From a virus (taxonomy: Duplodnaviria > Heunggongvirae > Uroviricota > Caudoviricetes): a stretch of DNA of 39,769 nucleotides. Shown in pieces: positions 30,393 to 33,942 of this stretch. The number at the start of each line of letters is the position of its first letter. Position 1 is the stretch's first letter. The DNA is taken from IMG/VR virus record IMGVR_UViG_2541047701_000005, positions 1-39,769 of that record; one strand, given 5' to 3'. The position numbers and the translations under genes are program-made. The notes under the pieces were generated by a model. The model ran no database searches and was not told the DNA's origin. It was given only the letters and a program-made list of their open reading frames with translations.

Positions 30393-31109
<717 letters not shown>

Positions 31110-31116
31110 CACGTAA

Positions 31117-31554
31117 ATGATTAAAGAACGTATTTCTTATATCATTCCGATTGCGATGGATGAAGGCAACCCCGTAACTCCAGTTCTTATCTATGAAATG
31201 GATAAAGACTCCCATGAAGTGGATCTGTCATTTGGCGCTTTTTTTATCGGCCTTAAGGCTACAAAAAAATATTCCATAGGCATTGAGGTTTTCAATGCTC
31301 AAGAAATACCGATACCAATTGACACAAAACTGTACTCCAACCATAAGTTTTTTACGGTAGCAGAAGCCAACGATGGAGAAACCATCGTATCAACTTCTAT
31401 GAGAATTAACTTCCCAAGGGTGAAAATTATCAAGCCTGGGATATTCGAAGTTAGAGCATCACTGGTTAATCCTGAGAAAGGCGAAGTAATTGATGTAAAA
31501 AGTTCGTTTTTTGACGTGAAGATAACAGGATCAGTTCGCGATGAGTTTAGATAA
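31117..31554 (+). CDS. Hypothetical protein (145 aa) in the rexA position downstream of cI
   Basis: ORF starts 8 nt after the cI stop; AT-rich codon usage; no resemblance to RexA that I can recognise. Confidence 0.5.
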   Translation: MIKERISYIIPIAMDEGNPVTPVLIYEMDKDSHEVDLSFGAFFIGLKATKKYSIGIEVFNAQEIPIPIDTKLYSNHKFFTVAEANDGETIVSTSMRINFPRVKIIKPGIFEVRASLVNPEKGEVIDVKSSFFDVKITGSVRDEFR

Positions 31555-31660
31555 CAAGGTTGCTCAGCTTCGTCCAAATCAAAACATATCTCGCCCAATT
31601 GGACACTATTCCACTGATGATGCATACTCTCGGCATGGTGGAGGAAACGGCGGAGGTAAC

Positions 31661-31912
31661 ATGCTTGAGGCTAGAGTTGCAAAGCTAGAGTCTGATGTTG
31701 AATACATCAAGCGCGATCTCGCTGAGGTAAAATCAGATATAAAATCTGTTGATTCTCGTCTGTCAGGTATTGAGACAAGTATTAGCTCAGCAAAAACCAC
31801 CATTAAGGCATCTGCGGTCGTTGTCAGTTTCGTGTTCGCATTTTGCGCCTACATTTTTGGAAGTTATGTTTCCAAAATCCTTGATGCCTTAAACGGACTC
31901 GTTCTTAAGTAA
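31661..31912 (+). CDS. Small coiled-coil membrane protein (83 aa from the GGAGG-preceded ATG; 123 aa if started at 31541) in the rexB position, XhlA-like architecture
   Basis: MLEARVAKLESDVEYIKRDLAEVKSDIKSVDSRLSGIETSI is an amphipathic coiled coil, followed by a single C-terminal TM helix AVVVSFVFAFCAYIFGSYV; the RBS GGAGGT sits 4 nt upstream of ATG 31661. Confidence 0.45.
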   Translation: MLEARVAKLESDVEYIKRDLAEVKSDIKSVDSRLSGIETSISSAKTTIKASAVVVSFVFAFCAYIFGSYVSKILDALNGLVLK

Positions 31913-31918
31913 CACACA

Positions 31919-31945
31919 ACCCGGCCTCAGTGCCGGGTTTTCTTT
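31919..31945 (+). terminator. Intrinsic terminator ending the cI-cassette transcript
   Basis: ACCCGGC-CTCAGT-GCCGGGT hairpin followed by TTTCTTTG, directly after the stop codon at 31912. Confidence 0.65.
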
Positions 31946-32096
31946 GCCTCTCGATCCCCCTTCCCAACAACACATAACCATTTGTATTTATTGGAAAACT
32001 AATAGATACAACTTGCTAAACAGTGCAATTCTGATCCCTCACCTACCTAACAATTCACCCCTGCAAAAAATAAATCCATATAAAAAACATACAGAT

Positions 32097-32160
32097 AACC
32101 ATCTGCGGTGATAAATTATCTCTGGCGGTGTTGACACAAATACCACTAGCGGTGATACTA
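32097..32160 (+). promoter_or_regulatory. Left operator OL3-OL2-OL1 with PL (-35 TTGACA, -10 GATACT), lambda-type
   Basis: AACCATCTGCGGTGATA, TATCTCTGGCGGTGTTG and TACCACTAGCGGTGATA at about 32097-32157; PL hexamers overlap OL2/OL1; transcription is rightward toward N. Coordinates approximate. Confidence 0.8.
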
Positions 32161-32204
32161 AACACATCAGCAGGACGCTGGAAGCCAAACGGAACAGATT
32201 GGCA

Positions 32205-32239
32205 TGCTCTTTAACTTCGATGGGGCGCTGACAAAGCGC
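32205..32239 (+). promoter_or_regulatory. nutL: boxA (TGCTCTTTAA) and boxB (GCGCTGACAAAGCGC, P22-type)
   Basis: boxA-like sequence followed 10 nt later by a 5-bp stem / GACAA loop hairpin matching the P22 boxB as I recall it. Coordinates approximate. Confidence 0.6.
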
Positions 32240-32403
32240 AAACAGATACCAAACGAGATGGGTTTGGGATTTGATGAATGTGCAGGTCGATGCACTAACG
32301 CTTAGCGGTGAGCACCTGCCTTTGGGGCAGGATGGGTAGCCGCAATCAGGAGATCGACACCTGACATCAAATCACCAAAGCCATTTCACATGGAGAAAAG
32401 AAA

Positions 32404-32523
32404 ATGCTGGAAATTATCACCAACCCAATTCTCGGTGGGGCAATCATCACTTTCGCAATCGGAATCGGATTCACTATCTGGTCTGAAGTAGATGACTGGA
32501 TGTGGGAGCGCAAAAACAAATAA
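32404..32523 (+). CDS. Candidate small ORF (39 aa, single TM helix) in the PL leader between nutL and N
   Basis: ATG preceded by GGAGAAAAG; translation MLEIITNPILGGAIITFAIGIGFTIWSEVDDWMWERKNK; below the ORF-track size cutoff. Confidence 0.3.
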   Translation: MLEIITNPILGGAIITFAIGIGFTIWSEVDDWMWERKNK

Positions 32524-32563
32524 TCATCGACACACATTCATGTGTGTCTTCACGGAGGTCATC

Positions 32564-32872
32564 ATGGCGGTAATCGTGTACGGGAAATCAACATTCGCAG
32601 GAAATGCCAAAACTCGCCGTCATGAGCGGCGCAGAAAGCTGGCTATCGAGCGTGATGCCATCTGCAACATCATTGATTCTATCTTCGGCACAGACAGTGA
32701 GGAACCTGTTCAGAAAGGCACGAGAAAGCGTTTAAGCCTTTCTGAAAAAGCAATATCACTCGGCAACATTCGTAACCAAAATACCGACGAATGCAGTGGA
32801 AGTATTTGCCTGCCAAACGTAGCCATTTACGCGGCAGGCTACCGGAAATCAAAACAACTGACAGCGAGGTAA
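32564..32872 (+). CDS. N: Antiterminator N (P22 gene 24-type arginine-rich motif)
   Basis: Internal ATG 32564 with GGAGG RBS; GNAKTRRHERRRKLAIERD matches the P22 N boxB-binding arginine-rich motif; located downstream of PL/nutL. Confidence 0.8.
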   Translation: MAVIVYGKSTFAGNAKTRRHERRRKLAIERDAICNIIDSIFGTDSEEPVQKGTRKRLSLSEKAISLGNIRNQNTDECSGSICLPNVAIYAAGYRKSKQLTAR

Positions 32873-32876
32873 TTAT

Positions 32877-33237
32877 GGGTCAGGAAGAAAAATATGAGCT
32901 TAAAAAGCTCATTGAAGAAGACGCCATAGAAGAAATTGCAGCATTAACAACAGCTATAAAGAATATTAGGTATGCGCTAAATACGCTTATCTCCTCATGC
33001 GACAAAAATAGCAGGGAATTTTTGATACTTGGCGCAGCTCTAGGAATAGTTGATGCGGCAACGCTTCACCTAATTACTCATGACGATATTCTTATTGAGC
33101 CGTATGAAACACTACTGCTTGTCAGGCAAAAAATGGCTGATGCCGCAGCAAATGGAGACCTTCAACTTTACATCGACTTAAGGAAAGCATTAAGGCGAAT
33201 GGTCAGAACTGAAGGAGATATCCCCCTGACAAAATAA
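32877..33237 (+). CDS. Hypothetical protein (120 aa) between N and cIII
   Basis: Internal ATG 32877 with GAGG RBS directly after the N stop; helical, acidic N-terminus; no recognisable motif. Confidence 0.45.
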
Positions 33238-33427
33238 GGGGGTGAGAGGATTTTACTATTTTTCTCGCTGTAGGGGTACACGAGAACCACCGAGCCTGAT
33301 GTGGTTAAAAGACAGGCATACTAATAAACACAGCACTGTGTATTCATTCCAACGAGTGAATACACGGAGCAATGTCGCTCGTAACTAAACAGGAGCCGAC
33401 TTGTTCTGATTATTGGAAATCTTTTTT

Positions 33428-33517: not shown

Positions 33518-33688
33518 ATGCAACAGTTCGCTATTGCAGGGGCGGCATCGGTTCGCCCTTTCAACCCAATTTTATCGGTGCAGCATTCACGAAAAAACAT
33601 TTTAACCGGAGCAGACTTTAAACAACCAAGAATGAAAAGTTTGCTCGAAAAGCTTTGGGATATTTTGAAACAACAAGGCCGTCCATGA
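33518..33688 (+). CDS. cIII: CIII (FtsH inhibitor) homolog
   Basis: 56 aa, internal ATG with GAAGGAG RBS; MQQFAIAG...SLLEKLWDILKQQGRP resembles lambda CIII (MQYAIAGW...RLIDILNQPGVP). Confidence 0.7.
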   Translation: MQQFAIAGAASVRPFNPILSVQHSRKNILTGADFKQPRMKSLLEKLWDILKQQGRP

Positions 33689-33855
33689 GTTTTACAGATA
33701 ACTGGTCAGACGAAGAATTCATTCGTCAGATGAAAGAATTAATCGGTAACGAAGGAGATATTCATGTCACTTGCAACCACAGTGAAGGAGAGCAAGTTAC
33801 AGAGACGCATGTACACGCAGCAGGCGTTAATGTATCGCCAGAAGGGAGATCGTGA
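33685..33855 (+). CDS. Hypothetical small protein (56 aa), Kil-position
   Basis: ATGA stop/start overlap with cIII; acidic; no recognisable motif. Confidence 0.35.
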   Translation: MSFTDNWSDEEFIRQMKELIGNEGDIHVTCNHSEGEQVTETHVHAAGVNVSPEGRS

Positions 33856-33942
33856 AGGTGTTCGCGTATTTTTAAATGCGGCAAAGACCGAAGTATTAAA
33901 TCAGCGTTATTTACTTGGGCCGTGTCCATTCTGAGGTGAATT

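Follow-up and report, generated by a model that had tools for sequence, protein, structure and literature searches.

The leader of the early leftward (pL) operon in the phage DNA analysed here holds, between a P22-type nutL and the antiterminator gene N, a small open reading frame that is very probably a real and so far unannotated protein-coding gene. The frame is judged to be coding because comparison of its copies reveals a conserved reading frame, conserved signals and purifying selection. We consider it probable that this gene specifies an accessory immediate-early membrane microprotein, that is, a translated product with one transmembrane helix that acts via its peptide. The lambda-type early leftward operon is a textbook circuit whose leader is regarded as non-coding, being made up of nutL, a processing stem and then N, and the unusual point of the present case is the location of a coding gene inside the N leader. 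We know of no coding sequence in the pL leader of lambda and, to our knowledge, a coding gene in an N leader has not been described; a literature search by peptide motif and by topic returned no such description.

A conserved 39-codon frame between nutL and N

The DNA analysed, called here the window, is the whole of a 39,769-nucleotide stretch (Caudoviricetes; IMG/VR record IMGVR_UViG_2541047701_000005, positions 1 to 39,769). Its early-left and immunity region is lambdoid and lies on the + strand, with a cI-like repressor (30396-31109, HTH_3 and Peptidase_S24 domains) and a terminator (31918-31939) that follows two genes in the rex position. The features of the leader are collected in Table 1. 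The small ORF runs from its ATG to a TAA at 32521-32523, as read from the sequence and the ORF list (MLEIITNPILGGAIITFAIGIGFTIWSEVDDWMWERKNK). The arginine-rich motif of the window N matches the P22 N peptide sequence quoted in PMC11480772, and the window boxB is identical to the 15-mer P22 boxB quoted in the same paper; this boxB is invariant in an alignment with 1H12, SH2026Stx1 and phiKp_30. In the promoter scan, pL was the sole sigma-70-like site on the + strand upstream of the small ORF, and no promoter-like site was detected between pL and the ORF. The earlier note had described a 39-codon ORF with a GGAG-type ribosome-binding site in the PL leader between nutL and N, and both the sequence and the ORF list bear this out: 8 nt separate the GGAG from the ATG, and the distance of 40 nt that it gave between the end of the ORF and the N start is exact (32524-32563).

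Table 1. Coordinates of the features of the pL leader and of N in the window
Feature	Position	Strand	Basis
OL operators and pL promoter (-35 TTGACA 32131-32136, -10 GATACT 32154-32159)	32098..32159	+	Promoter scan, 10/12 matches; lambda-like operator repeats in the sequence
nutL: boxA-like GCTCTTTAAC (32206-32215) and boxB GCGCTGACAAAGCGC (32225-32239)	32206..32239	+	Sequence
Large cloverleaf-like leader RNA, three arms closed by a long stem, 3' side ...AUCACCAAAGCCAUUUC	32255..32387	+	RNA fold
GGAG Shine-Dalgarno of the small ORF	32392..32395	+	Homologous to the N Shine-Dalgarno in phages without the block (alignment A1)
160-nt block: last bases before the ATG, ORF, hairpin and new Shine-Dalgarno of N	32400..32559	+	Gapped columns 303-462, alignment A1 versus 1H12, SH2026Stx1 and phiKp_30
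39-codon ORF, predicted single-helix membrane microprotein, PHROG 7482 family	32404..32523	+	ORF list, profile match, conservation, selection, model
Hairpin GACACACA-uuca-UGUGUGUC, between ORF stop and N Shine-Dalgarno	32529..32548	+	Fold -11.2 kcal/mol, 8-bp stem
GGAGG Shine-Dalgarno of N, 5 nt before the ATG	32554..32558	+	Sequence
N antiterminator, P22 gp24 type, arginine-rich motif GNAKTRRHERRRKLAIERD	32564..32872	+	PF25694 N_peptide E 1e-39; phrog_271 E 3e-39

A lone ORF of 39 codons says little because such sizes occur everywhere: 60 ORFs of at least 25 aa overlap the 3.5 kb around it. Taken alone, the small ORF is not beyond chance, and it is its conservation that lifts it above chance. 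Copies were gathered from E. coli prophages, IMG/VR contigs, Logan and ENA assemblies and protein databases. They amount to 33 loci, which correspond to 14 distinct DNA variants and 10 peptides, every one of 39 codons and opened by an ATG. A Shine-Dalgarno sequence (GGAG, GAGG or AGGAG) is found 5-9 nt before this ATG in all clades, and it is kept in loci L030, L031 and L040 despite their unrelated upstream sequence. The proteins found in databases, from Escherichia and Citrobacter, are either 39 aa long or 5'-extended versions of the microprotein; the 5' extensions of these longer models are mostly unrelated to one another and the shared core begins at the Met of the small ORF. In every locus the small gene lies between a cI-type repressor/pL and an N-type gene.

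The pattern of substitutions is that of a coding sequence. Variable sites among the copies are distributed 13/10/26 over the three codon positions, a third-position bias that fits the sense frame, and pairwise Nei-Gojobori omega values range from 0.05 to 0.3 with dS of 0.5-1.7. In three phylogenetically independent pairs (Sd 32, Nd 31), 51% of the differences are synonymous versus 21% expected and the sense frame gives a pN/pS of 0.25 (p = 9.5e-8), values that, the family being small, come from about 117 nt and few lineages. Between distant copies, identity reaches 80-85% inside the ORF versus 50-68% in the flanks, the conserved island thus coinciding with the ORF.

It is very improbable that there is no gene here, the ORF being either the by-product of a conserved RNA element or the counterpart of a real gene on the other strand, an antisense ORF of 56 aa (32367-32537, - strand). 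The antisense frame contains no stop in any variant and displays a weak synonymous excess (34% versus 24% expected, pN/pS 0.59, p = 0.03), and PGAP leaves the sense ORF unannotated in the five RefSeq loci inspected, the feature names of the other matches being those that N carries. However, the sense signal is much stronger (p = 1e-7 when rounded) and its third-position bias fits the sense frame, whereas the antisense ORF varies in its start (ATG, TTG, GTG or none) and in its ends, is under weaker selection and faces no promoter-like site, none being detected on the minus strand of 31850-33400 by a consensus scan only. The antisense ORF was rejected, and its signal appears, as expected, to be the shadow of the sense gene. 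As regards an RNA element, Rfam returned no family at the small ORF or at the hairpin that follows it, and locus L040 changes many synonymous sites, which argues against constraint at the RNA level. Four of the other five frames carry stops in most variants; an overlapping ORF in the +1 frame (32390-32491) was also discarded, with 3-4 stops in other clades.

The encoded peptide and its family

The product of the small ORF matches phrog_7482 over its full length (E 1e-22, 80.7 bits, residues 1-39 on profile positions 1-39 of 46), and on this profile match it is assigned to PHROG 7482, a family with no function, name or literature. No match to the peptide was obtained in Pfam, NCBIfam or PADLOC. 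A profile search against 1.84 billion representatives gave no remote relatives and returned only the family itself, in which four clusters at 50% identity match full-length, two truncated fusions and repeat noise. The named sources of the family are Escherichia albertii, E. coli and three Citrobacter taxa. The two fusions, proteins P0010 and P0011, consist of the first 20-24 residues of the microprotein followed by unrelated sequence, which in one of them is similar to the window ORF 33764-33934; this arrangement suggests deletions that removed N in decayed prophages.

The family consensus, with rare exceptions, is M-[LIQF]-[ED]-[IV]-[IM]-[TSCA]-NPILG-G-x-[IV]-x-T-F-x-[IL]-x-x-x-F-T-x-W-[SA]-x-[VI]-x-D-W-[ML]-W-x-R-K-x-x. 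Both ends are near-invariant, with an N-terminal cap (TNPILGG) and a Trp-rich basic C-terminal tail (DWMWxRKNK), and the core between them is variable yet hydrophobic across variants; small-residue motifs, GG and GxG, are present. The peptide had been described beforehand as a single, very hydrophobic helix. A single helix is indeed what AlphaFold2 predicts (residues 8-38, mean pLDDT 86), whereas "very" slightly overstates the composition of a Gly-rich sequence whose best 19-residue Kyte-Doolittle mean is 1.86 (residues 9-27) for a usual cut-off of 1.6. On the Hessa scale, the glycines bring the best 19-residue window to a borderline sum of about +0.6 kcal/mol. All three Lys/Arg of the peptide sit in the C-terminal tail and none at the N-terminus, a placement that, taken by itself, suggests an N-out, C-in orientation.

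Since selection covers the whole peptide, the peptide itself would be the functional entity, and a specific contact at the membrane can be argued because the hydrophobic helix has conserved ends. The comparison supports the first reading of the earlier note, that of a small membrane peptide: frame, length, start and Shine-Dalgarno are conserved, selection is purifying, the core is hydrophobic and a helix is predicted.

It is quite unlikely that the peptide belongs with the type I toxins or holin-like peptides and is toxic, forms pores or depolarises the membrane, in the service of early host shut-off or abortive infection. Peptides of the Ldr, Hok and TisB type are 30-50 aa long, with one hydrophobic helix and C-terminal Trp and basic residues. 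The microprotein is similar to them in size, in its single hydrophobic helix and in its Trp-rich basic tail, a resemblance only and one of general build, and the GG and GxG motifs would favour helix packing; in addition the lysogen would keep the gene repressed, a requirement for a toxin. Against this reading, the searches cited above gave no similarity to toxin families and no remote homologue, and a phage that made a strongly toxic product at time zero, from the strongest early promoter, would harm itself. The small gene also differs from the Ldr, Hok and TisB loci in lacking sequence similarity and any antisense RNA signal, with neither a minus-strand promoter-like site for such an RNA nor a promoter of its own, and in sharing its transcript with the other genes of an operon in which it comes first; as the consensus scan gave no antisense signal, we do not regard it as a type I toxin locus.

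Gain and loss of the gene and its relation to N

Three relatives, 1H12, SH2026Stx1 and the Klebsiella phage phiKp_30, have the same nutL and the same N and align with the window on both sides, but they lack the 160-nt block that contains the small ORF. In alignment A1, the relatives have CACATGAGGAAAAcatcATG directly before the ATG of N and the window has CACATGGAGAAAAgaaaATG before the small ORF. The homologous Shine-Dalgarno sequence, CACATGGAGAAAA in the window, hence precedes the small ORF in the one case and serves N in the other. Phages P6, HK620 and mEp213 likewise have the same nutL and N without the small gene, N being of the type of locus L007 in HK620 and mEp213. The phages devoid of the gene display two different junctions: that of the 1H12 type retains the upstream Shine-Dalgarno, whereas HK620 and mEp213 retain the downstream GGAGG, the same GGAGGTCAaCATG serving N in these two phages. 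Two different junctions imply at least two independent gains or losses, and on this comparison the gene is accessory, dispensable and gained or lost more than once. It had been proposed earlier that conservation in related phages be checked and that absence from close relatives would count against the ORF. Both situations occur, the ORF being kept in related loci and absent from close relatives; this absence points to accessory status and does not refute the gene.

Of 5,426 complete E. coli genomes, 31 contain the 160-nt block, in each case as part of the chromosome, and we recognise none of these 31 genomes as a model strain. Among 50,697 phage records, blastn with the block gave no match and tblastn with the peptide gave nothing, although the low-complexity filter may have masked the peptide query; the absence from these records is taken as real because the blastn search of the block was empty as well. 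A scan of one genome per species yielded a single 18-residue match, in a Clostridia MAG, which was dismissed as spurious. Across the loci fetched, the peptide is 77-100% identical to that of the window and stands ahead of at least seven types of N arginine-rich motif. The ORFs downstream of the small gene fall into one cluster in 19 of the 20 loci clustered and have in common the C-terminal motif CLPxVAxYxAG. A search for a co-occurring partner gene found nothing beyond cI, cII and N.

The large leader RNA that precedes the gene is very stable (-63.1 kcal/mol, z = -5.96; none of 200 shuffles was as stable) and ends 4 nt before the Shine-Dalgarno of the small ORF, so that it is context outside the ORF. 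Its closing stem is common to 1H12, AR_0058 and HK620 and covaries across phages. The interior differs between them and is a swappable cassette. Salmonella phage P6 and E. coli AR_0058 and EC20 have a tRNA-like interior that ends with ...CACCACCA (L005 1429-1509; L042, which is P6, about 515-597); it scores 38.2 bits on the Rfam tRNA model (gathering score 29), has a 15-nt anticodon loop and is called tRNA-Pro(tgg) by ARAGORN and tRNA-OTHER by PGAP. The cloverleaf-like interior of the window was not recognised as a tRNA. The leader structure could be an RNase III or RNase P processing site that separates nutL from the N message.

The place of the gene relative to this stem varies. It lies 3' of the leader stem in the window and in the L005 and L007 types, and 5' of the stem in L040. 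In the clade formed by L039-L041 (positions 2501-2680), the small gene directly follows nutL and precedes the leader stem (GGTGGTGG...CCACCACCAAAGC); the Shine-Dalgarno beside the stem remains with N, which has a further type of arginine-rich motif, GRRRERRAALQNE. In L031 (2362-2502), the leader stem with its Shine-Dalgarno is followed by an additional 46-codon ORF, and the ATG of the small gene overlaps the stop of this ORF (CAATGTTAG), which gives two small cistrons ahead of N.

In all copies a hairpin lies between the stop of the small gene and the Shine-Dalgarno of N. Nine variants yield the consensus RCACA-N4-UGUGY, whose 5-bp stem contains one covarying pair and is broken in two cases, and in L031 and L040 this site is occupied by hairpins that are stronger and unrelated in sequence. 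The hairpin of the window excludes the Shine-Dalgarno of N, and it was rejected as a + strand terminator as it has no T-run. An ATG in its 3' arm (window 32541-32566, + strand) is in frame with N, 8 codons upstream (MCVFTEVIM...); it is in frame in most copies with a 40-nt spacer and out of frame in L030 and L038, and it has no properly spaced Shine-Dalgarno, so that it is probably not used.

This arrangement leads to the other role put forward in the earlier note, that of an upstream ORF affecting N translation or antitermination. Stated more broadly, translation of the ORF would matter mainly in cis, for N or for the transcript, by opening or closing structure at the N Shine-Dalgarno, delivering ribosomes, shielding the leader from Rho or RNases, or shifting N autoregulation to another cistron, all of which would be compatible with a peptide function too. 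We hold such a role to be unlikely, although several observations speak for it. The ORF is immediately upstream of N for all seven N types, with a stop 39-61 nt from the N ATG across loci, and a hairpin always intervenes, also in L031 and L040 with their unrelated hairpin sequences. In the window, 5 nt separate the stop from the hairpin, and a terminating ribosome would thus melt the 5' arm. The ORF of the window has also taken over the Shine-Dalgarno that adjoins the leader stem. Work of Wilson and co-workers from 1997 and 2002, cited in PMC5725501, is reported to place at the corresponding lambda site the control of N translation by N and RNase III. On the other hand, purifying selection extends over the whole peptide, N-terminal cap and hydrophobic core included, something for which a role purely in cis would have no need, and there is neither overlap nor close coupling with the N start, N having its own GGAGG. 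RNA folding gives the N Shine-Dalgarno an unpaired probability of 0.19-0.54 with no conserved pairing partner, and the conserved CTCGG of codons 10-11 was considered as a long-range partner for this Shine-Dalgarno but rejected for poor complementarity, L040 altering those codons synonymously. Moreover, the gene precedes the leader stem in some phages and follows it in others, and isolated phages have the same nutL and N without the ORF. The upstream-ORF role received no positive support.

A possible role and the relation to known systems

If the small gene acts through its peptide, as we favour, it would be the first cistron of the pL transcript. With pL as its predicted sole promoter, it would be off in the lysogen, where cI represses pL, and on immediately at infection or induction. 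Synthesis of the microprotein would be independent of antitermination because transcription reaches the gene before N and before any terminator at which N is needed, and the left operon would have two immediate-early products, N and the microprotein. In the window, the microprotein would be translated from the Shine-Dalgarno that serves N in sister phages, and N would be translated independently from the second GGAGG, past the small hairpin. The product would insert in the inner membrane, most likely with its basic C-terminus in the cytoplasm, and would most likely act on a host envelope target early in lytic growth. Exclusion, host takeover and counter-defence are possible roles. They are guesses, as is the class of target, because no functional homologue of the microprotein was found.

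A bolder version, to which we give only a small chance, is that a peptide acting at the membrane is required by these phages at time zero, for example to block a membrane-based host defence or further DNA entry before the N-dependent genes are expressed, or that N synthesis is tied to translation of the peptide; in that case lambdoid phages would have in the pL leader, with its tRNA-like inserts, a hitherto unrecognised site for accessory functions of the immediate-early kind. This version is suggested by the fixed place of the gene ahead of at least seven unrelated N specificities and by the hairpin that always comes after it.

Comparison with known systems helps to situate the membrane microprotein that we propose. 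The pL leader of lambda has the same place in the operon, a long stable stem between nutL and the next Shine-Dalgarno and N as the next gene; by contrast, in the window the stem-adjacent Shine-Dalgarno is used by the 39-codon gene and N has a second one. The superinfection exclusion proteins T4 Imm and HK97 gp15, which are of moron type, are likewise small, dispensable and patchy in distribution, with junctions at the gene edges, and the microprotein shares with them a predicted inner-membrane location. It has no homology to them, however, is much shorter and would be repressed in the lysogen; as the gene has neither promoter nor terminator of its own, it is not a strict moron. The SecM-secA and MifM-yidC2 pairs are built in a similar way: the ORF that comes first has a hydrophobic N-terminal part and a highly conserved C-terminus, and a hairpin and the next Shine-Dalgarno come after it. 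Here the hairpin does not contain the N Shine-Dalgarno and sister phages have no need of the ORF, and the hydrophobic segment of a 39-residue product would still be largely inside the ribosome tunnel at termination. The small gene is consequently not a monitor of the SecM/MifM type, because the hairpin lacks the Shine-Dalgarno and the peptide is too short. By its profile match it belongs to the catalogued PHROG 7482 and, judging by its predicted features, its product is in kind a small accessory phage membrane protein.

The gene would add to the leader a product made alongside N and independently of antitermination, and it changes which ribosome-binding site adjoins the regulated leader stem. 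It is also, for the loci inspected, a concrete case of a gene under selection that a standard annotation pipeline skips. If a role in exclusion, takeover or counter-defence proved true, the microprotein would represent a compact tool and a new early phage function; if tuning of N proved true, the model of lysis-lysogeny timing would be altered for these phages.

Regarding the neighbouring genes of the window, a 56-codon ORF (33518-33688, + strand) that starts with MQQFAIAG and ends with ...SLLEKLWDILKQQGRP is lambda CIII-like by eye, an identity that Pfam and the Rfam cIII thermoregulator model did not confirm; the idea that the microprotein replaces cIII is unsupported. Two overlapping genes on the + strand (31117-31554 and 31541-31912) occupy the rexA/rexB position between cI and the immunity terminator and match phrog_5893 and phrog_6136, which have no assigned function. 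The second of them has a coiled-coil part with weak XhlA/hemolysin-like matches and a hydrophobic C-terminus, and the two genes are a candidate exclusion or defence pair expressed from the prophage.
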